Below are positions 7,203 through 27,903 of a DNA stretch of 64,000 nucleotides, in pieces. The notes under the pieces are model-generated. The model saw nothing but the letters and a program-made list of their open reading frames with translations, did no database searches and had not been told where the DNA came from. Each line of letters begins with the position of its first letter. The first letter of the stretch is position 1. The position numbers and the translations under genes are program-made. This DNA comes from an uncultured Christensenella sp. (lineage in GTDB: Bacteria > Bacillota > Clostridia > Christensenellales > UBA1242): contig CAYTNS010000002.1 in assembly GCA_964439345.1 (NCBI GenBank), forward strand, positions 26,797-90,796, in the 5' to 3' direction.

Positions 7203-9890
7203 TTAATATTCAGTTTGAAGTGCTTTTAAATAATTAGGGTTATTAAATAATTCCTTAGTTGTATTAAGTGCTTCTATCTGTACAGTTGTTCTATTCATAG
7301 GACCTGTAATCAAGAAACACTGACCACGACCGGCTGTAACTATGGAGTTCTGCTCCTCCTCATTTATACCACCGGCATTTCTATATAGAGTGATAAGGTC
7401 ATTGATATCGGCTGGGGCTAGTGACATTATTATAGAATACTGACAGGCATTGATAACGGCTGTAGATTGCTGAGCAATTTCTTCCGAACCAACGAAGTCT
7501 TTGATATTCTGTGTAATGATTATTAGCATTCCACTATATTTTCTTATACGTTTAGCCATCTGCGCCATAAAGTCTAGCGCTATTGGGAATTTCTTATTGA
7601 TAAATACGTGCGCCTCATCAACTGCACATATAACTCTACGCTTATCCTCTTCGGCAGCCTGTTCACCGATGTACTTTAGGTTAAAGTCACGGTTCTTGAT
7701 AATCTCGGCATCTAGGTACTTAAATACTAGTAACATCTGCGCATTAGCGATAATATCATTTCTATTGGAAATAAGTGTACGGAAGGAGAAACATATAAAG
7801 TTCTCATTGGTTTCAACAGATGTGTAACCATTCCATAGGTTGGAGTTACGACCACCTGTACCGAATTTCTCAATAAACATTCTAACTGTCTGCAAATTTT
7901 TGTAGTGATACTCATTGGTCTCCACCTCTAGCATATCATCAACCATTTGAATTAAATCATCAAATATTGGGAAATCACTAGGCTTTAGGTCGGCAACATT
8001 GACCGTACTATCTATGCCAAATTTTCTGTAAAGAGTAGCAATCAAGGAGTTCAACATCTCAAAGGCATCGGTATTGATACCCGGTAATATCAGTCTAAAG
8101 AATTGTTCCATAAACTGCAAGTGCTCATTGAAGGCATCGGTCGATTCACCCGTTTCTGCCTCAAGGGTTGCGTAAATATGGAAAGGATTAAAGATACCAT
8201 TGGTAGAGTTACCTACGTCAATTATCTTACCACCTAGGTTGTGACAAAGTATCTCGTACTCATTCTCGGGGTCAAGAATAAATACACGGGTATTATCTGC
8301 TGCGAAATTGGTAAGCAAGGTCTTGGTACAATACGATTTACCCGAACCAGATTTACCTATAACCATCATATTACTATTAACTCTTTCATTGTTTCTAGCA
8401 AAGAAATTTGCAAATACTGGATATTGATTGTATCCAATGTAAATACCTCTATCATCGTGCAAAGTGGTAGATACAAATGGGAAACATGCAGCAAGGGAAG
8501 ATGTGTGTATTCCTCTGCCATAAGGCTTAGCTAGGGTATCTAGTCTAGAAATATTACTAGATATAAATCCATCTACTTGTCTAGCGAAGTTCTCGGCGAA
8601 TTTGAAACCATTCTGTCTAAGAACTGCCCTAACCTCTTTTTTAACGGCATCTTTGGCTACAATATGAATAGTTGTATTGTAAAGCTGCTCATTTGAACCC
8701 TTGATACCTTTCAAAAGTTCTTTTAAGGTCTCAATGTGTTGCTCAACGTCAATCTTTTCGGAGCTACGCATATTTTTCTGTTGTTTAATCTCCATCTCCA
8801 TCAAAGATTTATCTAGGTCTTTTTCGGCCCTGTATCTATCTATAGGAGATATATTAACTACTACCCTACTCTCATCTAGAGCAAATAGTGGATATGCCCA
8901 CGCATTAGGTACTTCGATAGGATAATCGGTAATGGAGAATATTCTGTATTTCTCACCATCAATTTTGGTGGTCTTTAGGTCAAATCTAACTTCATCGGGA
9001 TAAGTCCACGCAGCCTTTTCGTTTAGGGAAAGAAGTTCAATCTCTCTTTCGTCAAAGTTACTGCAATAGGTAGACTTCATAAATACATATAGCTGGTCAC
9101 CTGTAACAATCTCGGTGTAAATAGGAGTAACCGAACTTTCAAGCGTACTAACTATACCATTTACAGTATTATTAAGTGCGTCTCTATCGGTATCGTAGAT
9201 AACCATATAGTAGTGGTCCTTAATAATCTTTTCGGTATCATTCATAAATTTAATAGCCTGTAACCTTTCGTCAAATACTGGGCTACGGCTATCTAGTTCG
9301 GCTGCCGAATAGAAACCTTTTTCGTACATATCATTTAGGACATTGAATCTATAGTCCTCGTACTTAGCCATATCATCTAGTACCATTGGCTTCTTTACCT
9401 TGACAATACTACACTGCTGATTTAGGTTAAGTCTCTGAATAGCTGTAGCAAAAGCATTGATAGTCATATCCTGCTTATCTTCGGTAAGCAATCCAAATGA
9501 CATAGGATATATCTCAATTACACTACCATAGTACTCACCGAATTTTAAGAATCTATCGGTATTGATATCATCGAATGGCATAATATTTTTAATATTCTTG
9601 CTACCAGTAGCTTTCTTGGAATAATACTTATTGTATGCCATAAATTTAAAGGATAGGAATAAGGCATTGTACATTCTTAAGTTATCGCCCATCTCCAAAA
9701 ATAACATAGCATAAGCACCAGCAAAGAATAGCGCTGCATAGATATTGTACCACATCTGACTAAACATATTGGTAGTGGCAATTAGCACTGCTATAGCTAG
9801 ACCTATCAAAATAAATATAGCATCTAGGATAGTGAAATTCCTAAATATTGTTACTTTAACTTTGGTCCTTCTAGGAATAAATCTCATCAT
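7203..9890 (-). CDS. VirB4/TraE/TcpF-type conjugal-transfer ATPase with an N-terminal VirB3-like two-helix membrane module
   Basis: Walker A is MVIGKSGSGKSY and the Walker B-like motif is ICAVDEAHVF. The 895-aa size is typical of VirB4. The N-terminus (KVKVTIFRNFTILDAIFILIGLAIAVLI...YAALFFAGAYAMLFL) resembles VirB3/PrgI/TcpE-type modules. Confidence 0.85.
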   Translation of the reverse strand: MMRFIPRRTKVKVTIFRNFTILDAIFILIGLAIAVLIATTNMFSQMWYNIYAALFFAGAYAMLFLEMGDNLRMYNALFLSFKFMAYNKYYSKKATGSKNIKNIMPFDDINTDRFLKFGEYYGSVIEIYPMSFGLLTEDKQDMTINAFATAIQRLNLNQQCSIVKVKKPMVLDDMAKYEDYRFNVLNDMYEKGFYSAAELDSRSPVFDERLQAIKFMNDTEKIIKDHYYMVIYDTDRDALNNTVNGIVSTLESSVTPIYTEIVTGDQLYVFMKSTYCSNFDEREIELLSLNEKAAWTYPDEVRFDLKTTKIDGEKYRIFSITDYPIEVPNAWAYPLFALDESRVVVNISPIDRYRAEKDLDKSLMEMEIKQQKNMRSSEKIDVEQHIETLKELLKGIKGSNEQLYNTTIHIVAKDAVKKEVRAVLRQNGFKFAENFARQVDGFISSNISRLDTLAKPYGRGIHTSSLAACFPFVSTTLHDDRGIYIGYNQYPVFANFFARNNERVNSNMMVIGKSGSGKSYCTKTLLTNFAADNTRVFILDPENEYEILCHNLGGKIIDVGNSTNGIFNPFHIYATLEAETGESTDAFNEHLQFMEQFFRLILPGINTDAFEMLNSLIATLYRKFGIDSTVNVADLKPSDFPIFDDLIQMVDDMLEVETNEYHYKNLQTVRMFIEKFGTGGRNSNLWNGYTSVETNENFICFSFRTLISNRNDIIANAQMLLVFKYLDAEIIKNRDFNLKYIGEQAAEEDKRRVICAVDEAHVFINKKFPIALDFMAQMAKRIRKYSGMLIIITQNIKDFVGSEEIAQQSTAVINACQYSIIMSLAPADINDLITLYRNAGGINEEEQNSIVTAGRGQCFLITGPMNRTTVQIEALNTTKELFNNPNYLKALQTEY

Positions 9891-10097
9891 AATCGTGTAT
9901 CTCCATTTTTCACATAATACATTTGCATCTAGTTATCTGCCCTAGCGCCTATAAAAATACTACAAGCACCTAGTAATTTTAATCATCAAACTCTTCTCAT
10001 TTATTTTTTGAAAAAAGTCCACAAATAATGCAAATATACACTTATATATTTTAGTATACTATAATCGCCCAAATTAACAAAATATTTTAGCCAAATT

Positions 10098-10300
10098 ATT
10101 TATAATTTATTATAAATAAAAATGAAGCGTAATTTATAATTGTTATAAATGAAAGCAAAAGTGGCGTTTATATTTGTTATAAATAAAGCAAAAGCAATGT
10201 TTACGGCGATTAAAGATAAAAATGTTAAAGATATTTATAATTATCAAAAACAAAAATAAAGACATTGTTTGTAGTTGTTATAGAAAAAAATAAAAGTCCT
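10098..10300. repeat. About six degenerate tandem repeats of 33-34 bp, three of which have a perfect or near-perfect palindromic core
   Basis: Units start at about 10099, 10133, 10167, 10200, 10234 and 10268. The cores are ATTTATAA-ttta-TTATAAAT (10098-10117), ATTTATAA-ttg-TTATAAAT (10132-10150) and gTTTATAt-ttg-TTATAAAT (10166-10184). Each core is followed by AAAGCAAAAG-like sequence. Confidence 0.7.
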
Positions 10301-10354
10301 GCACACACGAAAATATTCTCCCTCAAAATACCTACTAACTTACCCAATTGCATA

Positions 10355-19536: not shown

Positions 19537-22259
19537 TAATTTTCCTCCGATATTTCTACTTCTACAGTTTCTTCTGTATTCTTTTTTGCTTTCTTTCTTC
19601 TGATAGTATACTCGATTAATTTCTGTATCTCTACTATAGGAATAATCGCTAATGCCGAACCTACTGCAATTGCTAGTTCGGTTAGACTCAATGTGGTTGT
19701 GCCAAAGAATGTCTGGAATGCTGGTACAAAGGTAAGTGCAGTTAGAGCAATACCAGCAAGGGTTGCTAGGTTTAATTTGCCATTGCCAAAAGGATTGGAG
19801 GCAAATAGCGAATGGGTCTGCGACCTAGTATTGTATGCGTGGAATAATTGAATAAGTGCTAGAGTTACAAATGCCATAGTCATAGCGACCGAGTGATTCA
19901 TAACGCCATCTTGGAGTACATATCCACCTATGCAGAAGGATAGCATAGTAAGTGCTGTTTGGAATGCACCTTGGATAAGTATATCTATTCCCGTTTTACC
20001 AGCAAATAGCGATGCTCCCGACTTTCTAGGAGGTTTATCCATTATATCCTTTTCTACTTTCTCTACACCCAGTGCGAGGGCAGGAAGGGAATCGGTTACT
20101 AGATTAATCCATAGTATCATTACTGCACTTAGAAAATCCACTTTTAAAAATATTGTTGTTATAAATAAGCATAATACTTCGGCAATATTGGCAGATAGTA
20201 GATATTGAACGGCTTTTTTGATATTTGAGTAAACCTTTCTACCCTCTTCTACTGCTGCAATAATTGTAGCGAAATTATCATCGGCTAGGACTATATCGGC
20301 AGCCCCCTTGCTAACATCTGTACCGGTAATACCCATACCTATGCCTATATCGGCAGTCTTTATAGATGGTGCATCGTTTACACCATCGCCCGTCATAGCG
20401 ACTATTATATTAAATTTCTTATAAGCATTGACTATTCTTACTTTATTCTCGGGGCTAACTCTAGCAAAGACTTTATAATGTCTTAAGTCTTTTAGGAATT
20501 GCTCCTCAGACATTTTATCTAGTTCAGCACCCGTAATAGCCTTGTCGCCCTTGCCAAATATACCTATTTGCTTAGCGATAGCCACAGCAGTATCTAGGTG
20601 GTCACCCGTAATCATTACGGCAGACATACCTGCTCTTTTGCATGTAGCGACGGCTTCTTTTACCTCTGCTCTAGGTGGGTCTATCATTCCCACTAATCCT
20701 ACAAATATTAGGTCTTCCTCTAATTTGTCGTGATTTTTAAGTCCCGTCTTTTTATATGCAAGAGCTAATACCCTTAGAGCCTCTTTACACATAGTAGCAT
20801 TGGCAGATTGTACTAAAGTTTTATCATCTTCGGTTATCTCTCTTACTTTGCCACCTACAAGTATCTTTGTGCAACGGCTAAGCATTACATCGACTGCACC
20901 CTTGGTATAAGATATCTTATTACCCTCGCTGTCTTCGTGCACGGTGGTCATTAGTTTCCTCTTGCTATCAAAGGGAATTTCGTCTATTCTAGGGTTTTCT
21001 TTCTTTATAGTCCTAGGAGCAAATTTAATAGTCCTAGCATAAGCCACTAGCGCTGTCTCGGTTGGGTCACCAACTAGTTTACCCTGAGCACCTTCCTGAG
21101 TATCATTACATAGCACTAGTCCCTCTACTAGCATTTTTTCTGCTCCGTCCTCGGGCTTCAATTCATCATAGTATAGTCCTTTATCTGGAGTATACAATTT
21201 TTGAACGGTCATTTGATTTAGGGTAAGTGTACCCGTTTTATCCGAACATATTACTTCGCAACAGCCTAAGGTTTCGACAGCAGGTAGATTTTTTACAATC
21301 GACTTTCTTTCGCTCATTCTCTTGACGCCTATTGCTAGTACTATAGTTACTACTGCTGGTAACCCCTCTGGGATAGCTGCCACTGCTATAGCTACTGCTA
21401 TCATAAAATTATCTATCACTGCCTCTAGTAGTGTTTGACTAGGGTCTCTATTTATAAGCCCTGCTACGAATATCACTCCAGCGATTGCTAGTACTATAAT
21501 AGATAGATACTTAGCAGTCTTTGCTAGTTGCTGAGACAAAGGAGTTTCATTTTTCTCTTGGTTATTAAGCATTCCAGCAATCTTACCAACCTCGGTATCC
21601 ATACCGGTAGCAACTACTATTCCACTACCCCTGCCGTACGATACTACTCCCGTACTATATGCCATAGTTTTTCTATCACCCAAAGGTGTCTTATCGTCCA
21701 ATTCGGCATTGCAATCTTTCTCGACTGGTACGCTCTCGCCCGTAAGAGTAGCCTCACCTATTTTTAATGACTTAGATGTAACTAATCTAATATCGGCAGG
21801 TACTACATCTCCTGCCTCCAAAATAACCATATCACCTACGACTAAGTCCTCACACTTGACTCTAGCCACTTCACCATCTCTAAGCACCTTGGCAAAAGGC
21901 TTATTCATCTTGGTAAGTTCCCTCATCGCCTCATCGGCTTTGGACTCCTGCACCGTACCCATAATGGCATTCACTACTACTATTAGTAATATTATTCCGG
22001 CATCAATTAGTTCGGTATAATGTCCCTGAACTATGGCAAGGATTGCCGATACACCGGCAGCGATTAATAGCACTATTATCATTAGATCCTTCATCTGTGA
22101 AAAGAATCTACTTATCCACGACTTTGGTTTACCCTCGGCTAGAGCATTCTTGCCATTCCTACCTAGCCTCTGTGTAGCCTCTTCGCTACTTAGTCCCTGC
22201 TCGGTGGTATTATACTTTTTGTAAACATCGTCCAATTTTAAATTGTAATCTTGTTTCAA
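19536..22259 (-). CDS. P-type ATPase, Ca2+-transporting (P2A-like)
   Basis: DKTGTLT phosphorylation motif, PEGLP, TGDGVNDAP, and 10-TM-type hydrophobic segments. 907 aa. Confidence 0.9.
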   Translation of the reverse strand: MKQDYNLKLDDVYKKYNTTEQGLSSEEATQRLGRNGKNALAEGKPKSWISRFFSQMKDLMIIVLLIAAGVSAILAIVQGHYTELIDAGIILLIVVVNAIMGTVQESKADEAMRELTKMNKPFAKVLRDGEVARVKCEDLVVGDMVILEAGDVVPADIRLVTSKSLKIGEATLTGESVPVEKDCNAELDDKTPLGDRKTMAYSTGVVSYGRGSGIVVATGMDTEVGKIAGMLNNQEKNETPLSQQLAKTAKYLSIIVLAIAGVIFVAGLINRDPSQTLLEAVIDNFMIAVAIAVAAIPEGLPAVVTIVLAIGVKRMSERKSIVKNLPAVETLGCCEVICSDKTGTLTLNQMTVQKLYTPDKGLYYDELKPEDGAEKMLVEGLVLCNDTQEGAQGKLVGDPTETALVAYARTIKFAPRTIKKENPRIDEIPFDSKRKLMTTVHEDSEGNKISYTKGAVDVMLSRCTKILVGGKVREITEDDKTLVQSANATMCKEALRVLALAYKKTGLKNHDKLEEDLIFVGLVGMIDPPRAEVKEAVATCKRAGMSAVMITGDHLDTAVAIAKQIGIFGKGDKAITGAELDKMSEEQFLKDLRHYKVFARVSPENKVRIVNAYKKFNIIVAMTGDGVNDAPSIKTADIGIGMGITGTDVSKGAADIVLADDNFATIIAAVEEGRKVYSNIKKAVQYLLSANIAEVLCLFITTIFLKVDFLSAVMILWINLVTDSLPALALGVEKVEKDIMDKPPRKSGASLFAGKTGIDILIQGAFQTALTMLSFCIGGYVLQDGVMNHSVAMTMAFVTLALIQLFHAYNTRSQTHSLFASNPFGNGKLNLATLAGIALTALTFVPAFQTFFGTTTLSLTELAIAVGSALAIIPIVEIQKLIEYTIRRKKAKKNTEETVEVEISEEN

Positions 22260-22375
22260 TGTCTTACTCCTTTTTACTTACTAAAGTAAGTATACCAAAC
22301 GGCAATATTTTTGTTAATTAAAAATAATCAATTTTTTGAAATGACAAATACTAGATAATCTGCTATACTTTAATT

Positions 22376-23065
22376 ATGAAAATATCTGGAATACAAAAAT
22401 TATCAATGGTAGATTATGATGGACATATAGCGTGTACCATCTTTACGACTGGCTGTAATTTCGCCTGTCCTTTTTGTCATAATTCGGGACTAGTCACAAA
22501 GATTGATGGGGGTACTCTTATCCCCACTGAGGAGGTCATAGCCCACCTAAAAAAGAGAAAGGGAATAATAGATGCTATAGTAATATCTGGTGGAGAACCC
22601 ACGTTGCAACCCGACCTAGTAGACTTTATACGAATTTTAAGAAAATTGGATATCTCCATTAAACTAGATACCAATGGAACTAACCTACCAGTACTCAAAG
22701 AATTAGTAGAAAATAAACTAATAGATTATGTGGCTATGGATATAAAAAATTCTATAGAAAAGTATCCACTAACTATAAATAAAGAGGTAGAAAAAAATAC
22801 AATCCTAGACACCATAAAATACATAATGACATCTGGAATAGATTATGAATTTAGAACAACTTTGGTTAAAGAATTTCATAGTATATCCGATATAAAAGAT
22901 ATCGCAAAGATGATAAAAGGTGCAAAGAAATACTGCCTACAAAAATTTGTAGATAACGATAATTGCATAGCTGGTGGCTTACACGAAGTGCCTAAATCGG
23001 AAGCCAAAGAAATGCTAGAGATAATAAAAGAAGATATACCTAATACCATCTTAAGAGGATATTAA
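22376..23065 (+). CDS. nrdG: Anaerobic ribonucleoside-triphosphate reductase activating protein (radical SAM)
   Basis: The N-terminal CNFACPFCHN motif (CxxxCxxC), GGEPT, a size of about 229 aa, and proximity to nrdD. Confidence 0.85.
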   Translation: MKISGIQKLSMVDYDGHIACTIFTTGCNFACPFCHNSGLVTKIDGGTLIPTEEVIAHLKKRKGIIDAIVISGGEPTLQPDLVDFIRILRKLDISIKLDTNGTNLPVLKELVENKLIDYVAMDIKNSIEKYPLTINKEVEKNTILDTIKYIMTSGIDYEFRTTLVKEFHSISDIKDIAKMIKGAKKYCLQKFVDNDNCIAGGLHEVPKSEAKEMLEIIKEDIPNTILRGY

Positions 23066-23094
23066 TTAGCACTGCAAATAAATACATAAAAAAC

Positions 23095-23137
23095 AATTCA
23101 TATAGAAATCAAAATCTATATGAATTTTTCTTTTTTA
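23095..23137 (+). terminator. Rho-independent terminator after nrdG
   Basis: AATTCATATAG / CTATATGAATT stem followed by a T-rich run. Confidence 0.6.
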
Positions 23138-23259
23138 TCCACAATTGTGCATTATTTGTCAATAAGTAGTATACAATTGTCAGTAATATACACACTACAA
23201 ACAAAAAGTCATTGTAATAATGTATAGATATATTCTTACACATCACAATAACTATATAT

Positions 23260-24165
23260 TTATAATGTATTTAGATAATTACAAGCACTAGTTCCAGCTA
23301 CAGCGCCATCGCCAATTGCAGTAGTCACTTGTCTAACACTCTTTCTCCTACAATCCCCTGCAACGAATAAGCCTGAGGTCTTAGTAGCAGTACTCTCATC
23401 GCTATCGAAATAACCCCACTTATCTAGGTCGGCAAGGTTAGCAAATCTAGCATTATCAGGCACTTGACCAATGGCTACAAATAGTGGAGTATTCTCTATT
23501 ACAAAGGTAGACTTATCGTCCCTCTCAAATTTGATACCTTTCAATTCCTTATCGCCTATTAGTTCGATAGTTTTTGCATTCCTAGTAATAATGATATTAT
23601 CTCTCTTCTCAACTGCACTAACTAGTGCACCATCGCCAAAGAATTTATCAAACATTATAACTAGATTTACCTTGCTACATATATCGCTAAGTAGCAACGC
23701 ATATTGCAAAGCCGTATTGCCATCGCCTATTAAAGTGACCTCTTTGCCAGTGTAGAATGGTCCATCACATAGTGCACAATAGTACACTCCGTGACCTATT
23801 AGGTCGTCCTCATTAGGTAGTCTTAGTTTTCTGTGTTTTACACCCGTTGCTATTATTACAGCCTTTGACTGATACTCGCCAAATTCACCCTTTAGAGTAA
23901 ATACATTATCCTTTTTTTCGATAGACTCGATTTTATCAAATTCAAAGTCTACACCTAGGTCGGATATTTGGTCAAATAAGTCTTCGCTAAGTTTTGCACC
24001 CGAAGTTTGCTTGATAGTTGGATAGTTTTCTACCTTTGGGCTTTGGGCTATTTGACCACCCACCGATTCGCCCTCAATTAGTAGCACTTTCTTTCCATTT
24101 CTTAAGGAATAGAGTGCCGAAGTCATTCCCGACACTCCCCCTCCGATTACTATAATATCGTACAT
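23260..24165 (-). CDS. Thioredoxin-reductase-family flavoprotein lacking the canonical NADPH 2'-phosphate motif
   Basis: FAD site IIVIGGGVSGMTSA and redox-active YYCALCDG (about 23762-23785). The second nucleotide site reads GDGNTA...LVIMFDKFFGDG where canonical TrxB has GGGNSA...HRRDxFRA. The ATG overlaps the nrdD stop (TAATG at 24163-24167). Confidence 0.8.
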   Translation of the reverse strand: MYDIIVIGGGVSGMTSALYSLRNGKKVLLIEGESVGGQIAQSPKVENYPTIKQTSGAKLSEDLFDQISDLGVDFEFDKIESIEKKDNVFTLKGEFGEYQSKAVIIATGVKHRKLRLPNEDDLIGHGVYYCALCDGPFYTGKEVTLIGDGNTALQYALLLSDICSKVNLVIMFDKFFGDGALVSAVEKRDNIIITRNAKTIELIGDKELKGIKFERDDKSTFVIENTPLFVAIGQVPDNARFANLADLDKWGYFDSDESTATKTSGLFVAGDCRRKSVRQVTTAIGDGAVAGTSACNYLNTL

Positions 24166-26537
24166 TATTTTTTACTCTCTTCTATGTATCTTCTTATCTC
24201 ACTAGCATTATCATAATATCTAATGCCTTCAGCAGTAGGAACTAGTAGAGTTGGTGCTTTTTTAACACCGAATTTATTTGTAAGTTCGGCATTCTCCTCG
24301 GCATCAATTACAGTATAGCTCATACCAGCTTTGTCTAGTAGCATTTTCGCCATCTTGCAATTAGGGCAAGTCTTGGTAGCAAATAAAGTCAATTTATCTA
24401 GAACTAAATCGCTAGGGTTGTTAGTGCCCTCTTCACACTTACACTCCTCTGCTTTACGCATTTTGCTAGTAGCGATATTGTATGTTTTTCTTTCTTTAAA
24501 CTCTTGTGATTTTCCATCATTCCAGTTTTGAACTGGTCTATAGTATCCAGTTATTCTACTATAAACTTCCGTTCTTGCACCACACTCTGGGCACTCATAG
24601 TGCTCTCCTGCTATATATCCGTGAGTCTTGCATACAGAATATGTAGGAGACATAGTATAGTATGGTAATTTATAATTTTCTGCAATCTTTCTAACTAGAT
24701 TCATAGTAGCCTTCCAATCCTCTAGTTTCTCGCCTAGGAATGCGTGGAATACTGTACCACTAGTATATAGAGTTTGCAATTTATCTTGAATATCTAGAGC
24801 CTCAAATATATCATCGGTAAAGCCTACTGGTAAGTGAGAACTATTAGTGTAATATGGAACATTATCATCGCTAGATGCAGTGATAATATCTGGATATCTC
24901 TCCCTATCGTGTTTAGCTAGTCTATAAGAAGTACTCTCAGCTGGAGTAGCCTCTAGGTTGTATAGGTCACCATATTTTTCTTGGTAATCACTTAATCTAT
25001 TTCTCATATGATTTAATACTTTAGCAGTAAAGTCTTGAGCCTCTTTATTGGTCAAATCTTTACCTAACCAAATAGCATTTAGACAAGCCTCGTTCATACC
25101 CACTAAACCAATAGTGCTAAAATGGTTATTGAATGAACCCAAGTATCTCTTTGTATATGGATATAATCCAACCTCTAGTAATTTAGTGATAACTTCTCTC
25201 TTGGTTTTTAGTGACCTAGCAGAAATATCCATCATCTTGTCTAGTCTCTCAAAGAACTCTTCCTCAGTCTTAGATAGATATGCAATTCTAGGCATATTGA
25301 TAGTAACTACACCTACACTACCAGTGCTTTCGCCCGAACCAAAGTAACCACCAGATTTCTTTCTAAGTTCTCTTAGGTCTAGTCTTAGTCTACAACACAT
25401 ACTTCTAACATCACTAGGCTCCATATCTGAATTGATGTAATTGGAGAAATATGGAGTACCGTACTTAGTAGTCATCTCAAATAATAATTTATTATTCTCT
25501 GTCTCGCTCCAGTCAAAGTCTCTAGTAATTGAGTAAGTTGGGATAGGATATTGGAATCCTCTACCATTAGCATCACCCTCTATCATAAGCTCGATAAAAG
25601 CCTTATTAACCATAGCCATTTCTTTTGCACAATCTTTGTATTTAAAGTTTTGCTCCTTGCCACCAACTATAGCATTAAGCTCGGCTAAGTCATTAGGAAC
25701 TACCCAGTCTAGAGTGATATTTGTAAATGGTGCTTGTGTTCCCCATCTAGATGGAGTATTAACGCCATAAATAAAGCTTTGGATACATTGTTTAACTTCC
25801 TTATAAGATAGGTTATCTACCTTAACAAATGGTGCTAGATAGGTATCAAAAGATGAGAAAGCCTGTGCTCCTGCCCATTCATTTTGCATAATGCCTAGGA
25901 AATTAACCATTTGGTTACATAGAGTGGATAAGTGACTAGCAGGAGTAGATGTAATCTTGCCAACAACACCACCTAAACCCTCTTGGATTAATTGTTTCAA
26001 AGACCAACCAGCACAATAGCCAGTAAGCATAGATAGGTCGTGGATATGGATATCGGCATTTTTATGAGCCTGTTCTATCTCTTTATCATATACTTCACTT
26101 AGCCAGTAATTAGCAGTAATTGCACCCGAGTTGCTAAGGATTAATCCACCTACCGAATATGTAACGGTTGAATTTTCTTTAACTCTCCAGTCGGCTAGAT
26201 TTAAGTATTTATCTACTGTGGACTTATAATCCATTACTGTCTCGTGGATATGTCTTACCTTTTCGTGGTCCTTTCTATATATAATGTATGCTTTGGCTAC
26301 ATTTTCGTATCCATTAGTCATTAGAACATTTTCTACAATATCCTGAACATCTTCTACAGATGGGACTTTGTCTTCAAATTTCTCTACCAAGTTTAGTTCG
26401 GTAATCTTTGCCATCTTCTTACAGTCTTTAATTTCTCCATCTCCTAGAGCAATCATTGCCTTAGCGATAGCATTCTCAATCTTGCCTATATCGTAGTCTA
26501 CTAATCTACCATCTCTCTTTCTAATTTTGGTAATCAT
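24165..26537 (-). CDS. nrdD: Anaerobic (class III) ribonucleoside-triphosphate reductase with an N-terminal ATP-cone and a C-terminal fused glutaredoxin/NrdH-like redoxin domain
   Basis: ATP-cone KRDGRLVDYDIGKIENAI, SMCCRLRLD loop, Zn-ribbon CKTHGY...CPECG, and glycyl-radical motif SRITGYY (about 24541-24561). About 90 extra residues follow, with LFATKTCPNCKMAK and a thioredoxin-fold pattern (about 24168-24430). The start is set at the ATG at 26537 (AAGGAG RBS) rather than the track start at 26594. Confidence 0.9.
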   Translation of the reverse strand: MITKIRKRDGRLVDYDIGKIENAIAKAMIALGDGEIKDCKKMAKITELNLVEKFEDKVPSVEDVQDIVENVLMTNGYENVAKAYIIYRKDHEKVRHIHETVMDYKSTVDKYLNLADWRVKENSTVTYSVGGLILSNSGAITANYWLSEVYDKEIEQAHKNADIHIHDLSMLTGYCAGWSLKQLIQEGLGGVVGKITSTPASHLSTLCNQMVNFLGIMQNEWAGAQAFSSFDTYLAPFVKVDNLSYKEVKQCIQSFIYGVNTPSRWGTQAPFTNITLDWVVPNDLAELNAIVGGKEQNFKYKDCAKEMAMVNKAFIELMIEGDANGRGFQYPIPTYSITRDFDWSETENNKLLFEMTTKYGTPYFSNYINSDMEPSDVRSMCCRLRLDLRELRKKSGGYFGSGESTGSVGVVTINMPRIAYLSKTEEEFFERLDKMMDISARSLKTKREVITKLLEVGLYPYTKRYLGSFNNHFSTIGLVGMNEACLNAIWLGKDLTNKEAQDFTAKVLNHMRNRLSDYQEKYGDLYNLEATPAESTSYRLAKHDRERYPDIITASSDDNVPYYTNSSHLPVGFTDDIFEALDIQDKLQTLYTSGTVFHAFLGEKLEDWKATMNLVRKIAENYKLPYYTMSPTYSVCKTHGYIAGEHYECPECGARTEVYSRITGYYRPVQNWNDGKSQEFKERKTYNIATSKMRKAEECKCEEGTNNPSDLVLDKLTLFATKTCPNCKMAKMLLDKAGMSYTVIDAEENAELTNKFGVKKAPTLLVPTAEGIRYYDNASEIRRYIEESKK

Positions 26538-26585
26538 TTTTAAAAATCTCCTTATAACTATATATTGTATTTCTGCAACCCTAAA

Positions 26586-26640
26586 AACATACATCTTGTG
26601 GTTGTCAAATACATCTTATCACTATATCTTGTGGTTCGTC
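26586..26640 (-). promoter_or_regulatory. Duplicated promoter/operator element upstream of nrdD (NrdR-box-like)
   Basis: The minus strand carries TTGACGAACCACAAGATATAGTGA and TTGACAACCACAAGATGTATGTT, 33 bp apart. CACTATATCTTGTG (26620-26633) is a good partial palindrome resembling the NrdR box consensus; the second copy is degenerate. Confidence 0.4.
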
Positions 26641-26988
26641 AAACAATTTAACCCATATTTGCAAACTTAATTTTTTTATAAAATTTTGCATAATTTATTC
26701 AATTTCACTTAAATTTCCTTGACTAATCCCCTTTCCTCCTTCCCACCCAAATCACCTTATATTATCTTTCTGTCAAAAAACCTATTCTCTTCGTCCAAAA
26801 GACTACCCAAGTACATAAATCACCCTGCCCACATAATACTTTGATTACTCAAACAAAAGGATTTTTTATTAAATATTAGTCAAAGATTTTTATAATTTTT
26901 TTGGTTATAAATCCATAATCCCATAAAAAAGAGTGACCATCGTCACCACCTCTAGATATAGAAGTTGTAACTTTAATCACCCTAAAAA

Positions 26989-27903
26989 CTATTCAAATAG
27001 TACTGCTCCTGCTAGTATTCCAGCATCTCCACCAAGTGAAGCCACTCTAATATCCACTTTAGGAGCACCCCTGTATCCATAATCCAATTTTTCTGCCTTT
27101 TCTATAGCCCTAGCTATTATATTGGGTGCGTGAGTTAGTCCCCCACCTACTACTATTACATCTGGTCTAAATATATTGCAATATGCCGTAAAGGCTTGAG
27201 CAAGTCTACTAGAATATTCCTCTACTATCCTACCTGCCACCTCATCACCTAGCATATATGCTCTATCTATCTCCGATGCAGGTATAATATCTTTGCTCTC
27301 TAGTATACTTTTTTCGCTAGTTCCTAGCATTTCTTTAGCAAGTGTGGATAGTGAAGTACAAGATACATATCTTTCCATACAGCCCCTATTGCCACAACCA
27401 CATTCCTCTCCTCCATATACAAATGGAATATGTCCTAGCTCTGCCGAGCCACCTTGTCCCTCGTACAAGCGACCATTTATCACTATGCCACCACCGACAC
27501 CCGTGCCGAATATTAGCATTATCATATTATTAGAGCCCTTTCCTGCACCTAGATGATATTCGGCAAGGGTTGCCATATCGCCATCATTTTTTACAAATAC
27601 GGGCAGACTAGTGATTTTAGCCATCTCGTCATACAGATTAACACCTTTCAAATTAAGATTAGCGCTGGATAAAACTACGCCATTTTGTATAATCCCTGGG
27701 CAACCTAAAGATATTCCTTTAATTTCGCTAGGCTTAATATTCCCATTTGACATTATTTCGTGCATAACCTTAGCCACACCCTTCATAACATCATTTTTAT
27801 CGGTCTTTATATCCACTCTATCTATTATCTTATTATCTTTTATTAGCCCTGCCTTTGTGGTAGTGCCACCTATATCTATTCCTATTGTATACATTATATC
27901 CAT
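26989..27903 (-). CDS. ROK-family glucokinase
   Basis: N-terminal GIDIGGTTTK, the ROK signature with the CGCGNRGCMERY zinc motif, and 304 aa. Confidence 0.8.
   Translation of the reverse strand: MDIMYTIGIDIGGTTTKAGLIKDNKIIDRVDIKTDKNDVMKGVAKVMHEIMSNGNIKPSEIKGISLGCPGIIQNGVVLSSANLNLKGVNLYDEMAKITSLPVFVKNDGDMATLAEYHLGAGKGSNNMIMLIFGTGVGGGIVINGRLYEGQGGSAELGHIPFVYGGEECGCGNRGCMERYVSCTSLSTLAKEMLGTSEKSILESKDIIPASEIDRAYMLGDEVAGRIVEEYSSRLAQAFTAYCNIFRPDVIVVGGGLTHAPNIIARAIEKAEKLDYGYRGAPKVDIRVASLGGDAGILAGAVLFE

Follow-up and report, generated by a model that had tools for sequence, protein, structure and literature searches.

We report that an uncultured Christensenella sp. encodes, directly behind the gene of its anaerobic ribonucleotide reductase, a thioredoxin reductase-like flavoprotein with an altered NADPH site. 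The gene lies at 23260..24165 on the minus strand of a 64,000-nucleotide stretch of contig CAYTNS010000002.1 (hereafter the window), and the nrdD gene upstream of it specifies a class III ribonucleotide reductase (RNR) with a glutaredoxin-like redoxin domain fused to its C-terminus. By fold and motifs the flavoprotein belongs to the low-molecular-weight (low-Mr) thioredoxin reductase (TrxR) superfamily, and it is referred to here as the TrxR-like protein. Judged from its distribution among homologues, the altered site represents a new signature, conserved under purifying selection, and not a product of decay or chance. We propose that this NrdD2-type NrdD would have, in the TrxR-like protein, a dedicated reductase for its fused glutaredoxin-like domain.

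To our knowledge, the reductant of class III RNRs has been settled for only a handful of enzymes. E. coli, phage T4 and L. lactis use formate, N. bacilliformis the thioredoxin (Trx)/TrxR/NADPH system, and M. barkeri a ferredoxin-FDR-NrdH chain.

Results

A thioredoxin reductase fold with a remodelled nucleotide site

NADPH-dependent TrxRs (NTRs) have been defined by the motifs GGGxxAxE and VxxxHRRDx[F/L]R (PMC5627308) or, alternatively, by GxGxxA and HRRxxxR (PMC10880999), and the loss of such motifs serves in surveys as the working definition of non-NTR enzymes (PMC10880999, PMC5627308). In the TrxR-like protein, alignments place GDGNTALQY (residues 147-155; 23701..23727, minus strand) at the position of the GGGxxAxE(E/D) pyrophosphate loop and VNLVIMFDKFFGD (residues 166-178; 23632..23670, minus strand) at that of the VxxxHRRDxFRAE 2'-phosphate site. 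HMMER alignments to five solved NADPH-dependent TrxRs, which set 'lvimfd' under 'lvhrrd' and GDGNTA under GGG(N/D)SA, agree with an earlier reading of the DNA made without database searches (the sequence-only reading), according to which GDGNTA...VIMFDKFFGDG replaces GGGNSA...HRRDxFRA. All four basic residues of VxxxHRRDxFR are swapped, His for Ile, Arg for Met and the other two Arg for Phe; HRRxxxR is absent from the window copy and GxGxxA is formally kept, as GDGNTA. Going by these motifs, the TrxR-like protein is not an NTR under either published definition.

The GDGNTA loop is invariant in 120 of the 120 closest database homologues (75-100% identity), across which VN[LM]VIMFD[KRH]FFG[DE] hardly varies. 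More distant proteins (39-57% identity with the query), drawn from one-per-50%-identity representatives and from species genomes, have G-D-[GA]-N-[ST]-A-x-Q-Y together with [TI]-[LM]-[FT]-D-K-[FL]-F-[GAC]-[DE]. Throughout this GD clade the second Gly of GGG is Asp (Asp148, 100%) and the Glu-Glu pair after the loop has become Gln154-Tyr155 (both 100% conserved); at the third, central Gly half of the nrdD-linked members have Ala, and so read GDANxA and have lost GxGxxA. Relative to E. coli TrxR, the clade has Thr/Ile for His175, Leu/Met for Arg176, Phe/Thr for Arg177 and Phe for Arg181; in the E. coli reference a 44-residue NADPH-site stretch, which covers all compared positions, matched the search alignment. 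It is the invariance of the signature in 120 homologues, and the fact that it can still be recognised down to about 40% identity, that speak against decay.

The remainder of the protein keeps the fold and the redox motifs of a low-Mr TrxR. The open reading frame (ORF) runs from ATG 24165-24163 to TAA 23262-23260 on the minus strand (301 codons, for 301 amino acids, plus the stop), and the Pfam model Pyr_redox_2 covers its product end to end (1-291 of 291). The best NCBIfam match is TIGR01292 (thioredoxin-disulfide reductase) at 282.3 bits, under the cut-off of 343.45 bits, which is why close homologues carry the name 'FAD-dependent oxidoreductase'. An AlphaFold2 model (pLDDT 86) takes up the NTR-like flavin-oxidizing (FO) conformation and superposes in Foldseek on solved low-Mr TrxRs at TM 0.88-0.91. 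The sequence-only reading held that the FAD site and the CALC redox centre are intact and that the start codon overlaps the nrdD stop, and all of this stands. The FAD-binding GGGVSG occupies residues 8-13 (24127..24144, minus strand) and the second FAD motif, GLFVAGD, residues 265-271; the redox-active CALC with its following Asp was located by alignments and by motif at residues 130-134 (23764..23778, minus strand); and in the TAATG junction (24163..24167, minus strand) the nrdD stop TAA (24167-24165) shares 1 nt with the ATG (24165-24163). The same junction is present in six other loci (L001, L002, L007-L009 and L014). The two Cys and the Asp of CxxC-Asp are conserved at 100% in all classes described below, with the exception of the phage-like set, where the Asp stands at 87%. 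At the positions that contact Trx the protein reads GHG, against canonical G(R/K)G, and CDGPF, against CDG(F/A)F.

The NrdD partner and its fused redoxin domain

The nrdD gene (24165..26537, minus strand) encodes 790 amino acids comprising an ATP-cone, the class III RNR core, a Zn ribbon and the C-terminal redoxin domain, and its product matches NF006126 at 1137 bits as well as Pfam ATP-cone, NRDD and Glutaredoxin. An AAGGAG lies 8 nt upstream of ATG 26537, which is most likely the true start of the 790-residue protein, in place of the listed 809-residue ORF from 26594.

When aligned with T. maritima NrdD, Cys175 falls on the strand-A Tyr-Cys, the finger-loop MCCR (25389..25400, minus strand; a double Cys plus Met) on SCCR, and NLEATPAE (24936..24959, minus strand), with the active-site Glu typical of thioredoxin-type NrdD2, on NIEQVPAE (Glu495); at the NLE position P. 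copri NrdD has SIL, within SILATPAE. The glycyl-radical motif RITGYY is at 24540..24557 (minus strand; alignment and motif location). NrdD2 is the thioredoxin-using subtype (PMC9176816), distinguished in the classification of Wei et al. by a third Cys and a Glu, sometimes with Met (as given in PMC4493059); Met-containing double-Cys NrdDs could in principle use formate or thioredoxin (PMC9669993). From these alignments, the window NrdD carries the NrdD2 (thioredoxin-type) catalytic set, namely Cys175, MCCR and the NLE glutamate. The fused glutaredoxin/NrdH-like domain (24168..24392, minus strand) matches PF00462 at 34.4 bits, over a cut-off of 22.9 bits, and has its CPNC at 24357-24368; with the NCBIfam subfamily models YruB, NrdH, Grx3 and MJ0307 it scored under every cut-off.

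Distribution of the nrdD-redoxin/TrxR module

One genome per species was scanned with the clade alignment as query and the best 80 loci were kept. In 25 of these 80 the gene immediately upstream of the TrxR-like one is an nrdD with a fused CPxC domain, at a distance of -1 (TAATG) to about 27 nt in most linked loci, and nrdG is found near the pair in a recurring arrangement. Wherever the translation of a linked NrdD extended over those sites, it has MCCR and NLEATPAE, and CPxC is kept in most. The hosts are mainly metagenome-assembled genomes (MAGs) of uncultured Clostridia labelled Christensenella/Christensenellaceae, Acutalibacteraceae, Oscillospiraceae, Faecalibacterium or Subdoligranulum, and a few module-bearing MAGs are labelled Bacilli. 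In linked loci the NrdD cores are 73-85% identical to that of the window, the TrxRs only 41-57%. Trx genes show no consistent linkage to the module in the window or across the 27 nrdD-linked loci inspected.

The linked TrxRs differ in their nucleotide site. Twelve loci have the form of the window protein, GD[GA]N[ST]A ... TLFDKFFG[DE] (class GD/TLFD, or GD-type); seven have the Thermosipho-like motif GGGNSA ... VQNLxYLTGE, as in T. africanus TrxR 7JYP (class QNL); and five have the canonical GGGxxA ... HRRDxFR (class HRR). Their TIGR01292 scores are 282-287, 324-329 and 320-357 bits, respectively. The remaining locus, L016, is an outlier: its nrdD-linked gene (L016:6001-6897) is nested among the GD-type in the tree and reads GGGNSG ... 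VNIFVSGNKFSGE (GGGNSG ... VSGNKFSGE), a fourth site variant with a GxGxxG loop and neither the HRR nor the TLFD motif. In species genomes each of the 12 GD-type genes comes after nrdD, and the metagenome GD-type proteins P0121, P0122, P0125, P0133 and P0200 are likewise nrdD-linked (5/5). Co-occurrence with fused-redoxin NrdDs had been suggested as a check on the sequence-only reading, and it came out in favour of the relay from TrxR through redoxin domain to NrdD, every cellular GD-type gene examined being nrdD-linked.

An identical TrxR-like protein is encoded on contigs L001-L004, next to an NrdD that is either redoxin-fused (787 amino acids) or ends at 706 amino acids. The comparison set L003:1350-3713 and L004:947-3310 against L001 and L002; in L003 a separate called ORF of 57 amino acids precedes the TrxR gene. 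The split NrdD of L003/L004 may be either a natural fission or an assembly/frameshift artefact.

Placement relative to other thioredoxin reductases

In a search of solved structures the query scored 140-187 bits against NADPH-dependent TrxRs (4zn0 at 3e-54). Against the clostridial flavin thioredoxin reductases that depend on ferredoxin (FFTRs), 6GNA, 6GNC and 6GND, it scored 117, 114 and 112 bits, against the G. violaceus FFTR/DTR 5J60 111 bits, and against DvTRi (5NII) 90 bits. L057, an unrelated TrxR-like protein, reaches 110-138 bits with those FFTRs, so that the query has no special affinity to them. Searched by itself, the 55-residue region of the former NADPH site returned NTRs and ferredoxin-NADP reductases but, with hits accepted up to E <= 10, neither an FFTR nor a DTR; nor was there an FFTR among the 50 best Foldseek fold matches of the model. 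The sequence-only reading had named FFTRs and related families as likewise lacking the HRR motif; the TrxR-like protein does not fall in the characterised FFTR/DTR clades, at 111-117 bits against 140-187 for NTRs and with no match through the former NADPH region. Placed relative to FFTRs by bit scores, not by a tree, the TrxR-like protein is outside the characterised FFTR clades and closer to ordinary TrxRs, and on this evidence its loss of HRR would be independent of the FFTR lineages.

Relatives in phage-like contexts

Phage-like contexts also hold TrxR-like genes of the GD-type, with 39-43% identity to the query (L010-L012, L093-L095 and L118-L128), among neighbours such as ClpP, PhoH, RecD2/UvrD helicases, DNA ligase, dUTPase and homing endonucleases. 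One of the GD-type proteins, P0171, is on eleven IMG/VR contigs of 94-148 kb, where it adjoins ClpP, PhoH and RecD2-like genes; there is no nrdD within 10 kb of it, and no nrdD or redoxin gene in the phage-like flanks examined. In the viral scan the clade alignment gave only distant TrxRs, and GD-type copies were found with P0171 as query. The phage protein family PHROG 6397, named 'ribonucleotide reductase large subunit', is matched between profile positions 3 and 321 (of 473) by window positions 23263-24165, by P0171 and by P0174; this points either to a wrong label or to a TrxR-RNR-associated fusion within the family.

Surroundings of the locus

The nrdG activase gene (22376..23065, plus strand; TIGR02495, NrdG2, 214 bits against a 131-bit cut-off) is convergent with nrdD and the TrxR-like gene. 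Upstream of nrdD, three NrdR-box-like 16-mers about 32 bp apart fall within 26555..26634 (no strand assigned), at 26619-26634, 26587-26602 (the weaker one) and 26555-26570, the first two doubling as a 17-nt direct repeat (AACCACAAGAT.TA). They are suggestive only: the whole window holds 6 matches to the consensus against 3.0 expected, a count that is not significant alone. Promoter and terminator scans did no better than shuffles. In Rfam, the interval 22000-27200 gave one match, to DUF805 RNA at 24491-24555 (minus strand), within the nrdD coding region; its 29.8 bits are under the gathering score of 51.1, and it was rejected as chance. Farther off, conjugative and type IV secretion system (T4SS) genes at 7203-18690 adjoin housekeeping genes. 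A TraG/VirB4-like ATPase is encoded at 7203-9890, a T4SS pilin at 13700-14014 and a VirD4-type coupling protein at 16621-18690, and the gene set is probably an integrated conjugative element.

Discussion

From the fold, the motifs, the altered site, the fusion, the synteny and the NrdD2 set observed above, we infer both the steps of electron transfer and the identity of the donor at their head. An external donor would reduce the FAD, the FAD would reduce the CALC disulfide (Cys130/Cys133), CALC would reduce the CPNC of the NrdD C-terminal domain, CPNC would reduce the active-site disulfide of NrdD (Cys175 with Cys381 or Cys382), and NrdD would reduce NTP; NrdD and the TrxR-like protein would be made from one mRNA with coupled stop and start. 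It is likely that the TrxR-like protein reduces the fused domain and that this domain serves NrdD, because CxxC-Asp is kept, the redoxin is fused, the NrdD2 set is present, translation is coupled and synteny is strict. The sequence-only reading had postulated a self-contained relay from a low-potential donor through the TrxR-like protein and the redoxin domain to NrdD. Its course from TrxR through redoxin domain to NrdD is upheld by the NrdD2 set, the 25-genome synteny and the nrdD linkage; 'self-contained' is an overstatement, since the locus does not code for the first electron donor.

As to that donor, we consider it probable that it is something other than NADPH. The TrxR-like protein could be an ordinary NADPH-dependent TrxR in which the motif changes are tolerated, as its overall closeness to NADPH-dependent enzymes (4zn0, 3e-54) and its NTR-like FO model might suggest. 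This is very unlikely, however, because the residues that bind the 2'-phosphate are all gone, replaced by hydrophobic ones, while sister operons keep them: HRR is retained in sister genes of equivalent operons, where NADPH is presumably used, so it appears to be maintained where needed. The TIGR01292 score of 282 bits against a cut-off of 343 and the published use of motif loss as a non-NTR criterion (PMC10880999, PMC5627308) point the same way.

We suggest that ferredoxin or flavodoxin, in reduced form, would serve as the low-potential donor, in the manner of FFTRs but evolved independently, and that the new Asp/Tyr/Phe-rich surface could dock it. This identity, proposed by analogy, is a real possibility but one on which we would not insist, and the whole chain with a ferredoxin or flavodoxin donor included is likewise held tentatively. 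Several observations weigh against it. There is no ferredoxin or flavodoxin gene in the window, nor one consistently beside the module in the 27 nrdD-linked loci. In the window copy both GxGxxA (as GDGNTA) and a full-length Rossmann domain are retained. When the motif columns are masked, a neighbour-joining tree groups the GD proteins and L016 with a bootstrap of only 42/100 (the QNL group reaches 79/100). The analogy itself is weak because the protein falls outside the FFTR clades, and the module is not tied to a low-potential donor because sister operons carry HRR-type or QNL-type TrxRs.

Alternatively, NADH could be bound at the remodelled site and feed the same dedicated relay from TrxR through the glutaredoxin domain to NrdD. 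The GxGxxA of the window copy, its conserved Asn150 and Ala152 and the undeleted Rossmann domain would suit such a nucleotide, as would the GGGNSG of L016, which is nested in the GD clade. QNL-type TrxRs, in the same operon context, are without the basic and acidic specificity residues, and the T. maritima TR, part of a TR/Grx-like system, from the Thermotogae and a relative of the QNL-type, is reported to prefer NADH (cited in PMC5627308), so the loss of HRR is compatible with NADH and counts to that extent against a ferredoxin or flavodoxin donor. An NADH-dependent TrxR-like/Grx-like pair, Cp34/Cp9 of C. pasteurianum, is also on record (Reynolds 2002, cited in PMC3720550). On the other side, half of the nrdD-linked clade has Ala for the central Gly (GDANxA), a change expected to clash with the pyrophosphate of a dinucleotide, and these variants therefore disfavour a canonically bound dinucleotide; the loop is flanked by an invariant Asp; and strand 2 of the GD-type does not end in an acidic residue. 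AhpF-type NADH enzymes have a Glu there. On balance we think NADH somewhat less likely than ferredoxin or flavodoxin, but a serious rival.

Two further explanations dispense with the relay. The TrxR-like protein might be a general, housekeeping TrxR that merely sits beside nrdD, the fused domain being reduced otherwise or NrdD using formate. The Met kept in the NrdD finger loop makes formate chemistry possible (PMC9669993), and 64 kb of the genome is in view, which bears on any second TrxR; but the stop/start overlap, the strict nrdD adjacency of every cellular GD-type gene examined and the divergent Trx-contact positions (GHG, CDGPF) make this improbable. The nearby nrdG recalls instead a ferredoxin/flavodoxin reductase feeding NrdG, like Lactococcus YumC/TrxB2, a TrxR-like flavoprotein being known to serve ribonucleotide reduction through flavodoxin (PMC4626851). 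YumC-type enzymes are without CxxC (PMC5627308), whereas here CxxC-Asp is almost invariant and the upstream NrdD has a redoxin substrate domain fused to it; we give this explanation next to no credence, and it was dropped on account of the CxxC-Asp.

The compact nrdD-redoxin/TrxR module is widely conserved in uncultured gut and rumen Clostridia, and its three main nucleotide-site forms, in otherwise equivalent operons, amount to a natural experiment in donor switching for an essential enzyme. As far as sequence can tell, the reducing power for DNA-precursor synthesis in these uncultured gut Clostridia probably comes from a donor other than NADPH. If the GD/TLFD form proves NAD(P)H-independent, it would be a new lineage among atypical thioredoxin reductases, would link DNA-precursor supply to ferredoxin-based energy metabolism and would account for the NCBI name 'FAD-dependent oxidoreductase'. 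The fullest version of our proposal would make GD/TLFD a third, independently evolved lineage of pyridine-nucleotide-independent flavin TrxRs, private to redoxin-fused class III RNRs, wiring dNTP synthesis of gut Clostridia to ferredoxin or flavodoxin and borrowed by large phages for nucleotide reduction of their own; we offer it as a conjecture, and a somewhat doubtful one.

Comparison with known systems

Thioredoxin-dependent NrdD2, the M. barkeri ferredoxin chain, HRR-less clostridial flavin TrxRs and one grx::nrdD fusion are already known. In the literature searched, with Wei 2014, Wei 2015 and Buey 2018 outside our reach, the co-translated nrdD-redoxin/TrxR module is undescribed, as are the GD/TLFD signature and the three-way variation of the nucleotide site; Wei 2014 may note nrdD-redoxin-TrxR neighbourhoods.

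With the low-Mr NADPH-dependent TrxRs (TrxB; E. coli 1TDE, S. aureus 4GCM, M. mazei 4ZN0) the TrxR-like protein shares fold, FAD motifs, CxxC-Asp, length and domain order. It differs in that the GD-type has GD(G/A)NxAxQY and (T/I)(L/M)FDKFFG(D/E) for GGGxxAxE and HRRDxFR, and in that the cellular GD-type genes examined always come after nrdD. Wei et al. are said to have described in 2015 (cited in PMC9176816) an M. barkeri NrdD3-NrdH-FDR operon in which electrons pass from ferredoxin through FDR and NrdH to NrdD. That system is alike in being an operon-encoded, dedicated reductant chain for a class III RNR, driven there by ferredoxin; its reductase is reportedly an iron-sulfur enzyme of the FTR type, its NrdH separate and its NrdD3 without the Glu, whereas here the reductase is a flavin TrxR.

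Ferredoxin-driven, HRR-less flavin TrxRs are known in Clostridia and cyanobacteria (PMC10880999, PMC12796991). Like these FFTRs (C. acetobutylicum 6GNA/6GNC, G. violaceus 5J60/6XTF), the TrxR-like protein appears TrxR-derived, has FAD and CxxC, is without HRRxxxR and comes from anaerobic Firmicutes; GxGxxA is formally kept in the window copy and lost in half of the nrdD-linked clade. The clostridial FFTR entries have 288-294 residues and are about 20 shorter than the query over the aligned span, the C-terminal Trp tail of FFTRs is absent from the TrxR-like protein, and the donor of FFTRs is demonstrated whereas that of the TrxR-like protein is proposed by analogy. DvTRi of Desulfovibrio vulgaris, which is inert to NAD(P)H (PMC5627308), offers a second parallel: found in D. 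vulgaris and some Clostridia (5NII), it too is NTR-derived, has lost HRR and is confined to anaerobes (PMC5627308). Where others have HRRD it reads TQ/NGK, and its pyrophosphate loop is degenerate; its gene is monocistronic, Trx1 is the protein that it reduces, and it scores 90 bits to the query.

Fusion of a glutaredoxin-like domain to an RNR component as reductant has a parallel in F. ignava, where the Grx is glutathione-linked and N-terminal on NrdB. One grx::nrdD fusion has been noted previously (PMC6187632), with no dedicated reductase gene described with it. On the side of the reductase's partner, the closest counterparts are the NrdD2 enzymes of N. bacilliformis and T. maritima, which likewise have the third finger-loop Cys and the Glu and take a protein disulfide reductant in place of formate or alongside it (PMC4493059, PMC9669993). 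The finger loop of the window NrdD is MCCR and not SCCR; and in N. bacilliformis and T. maritima redoxin and reductase are separate, general and NADPH-linked, whereas in the window NrdD carries its redoxin as a fused domain and is co-translated with the reductase.

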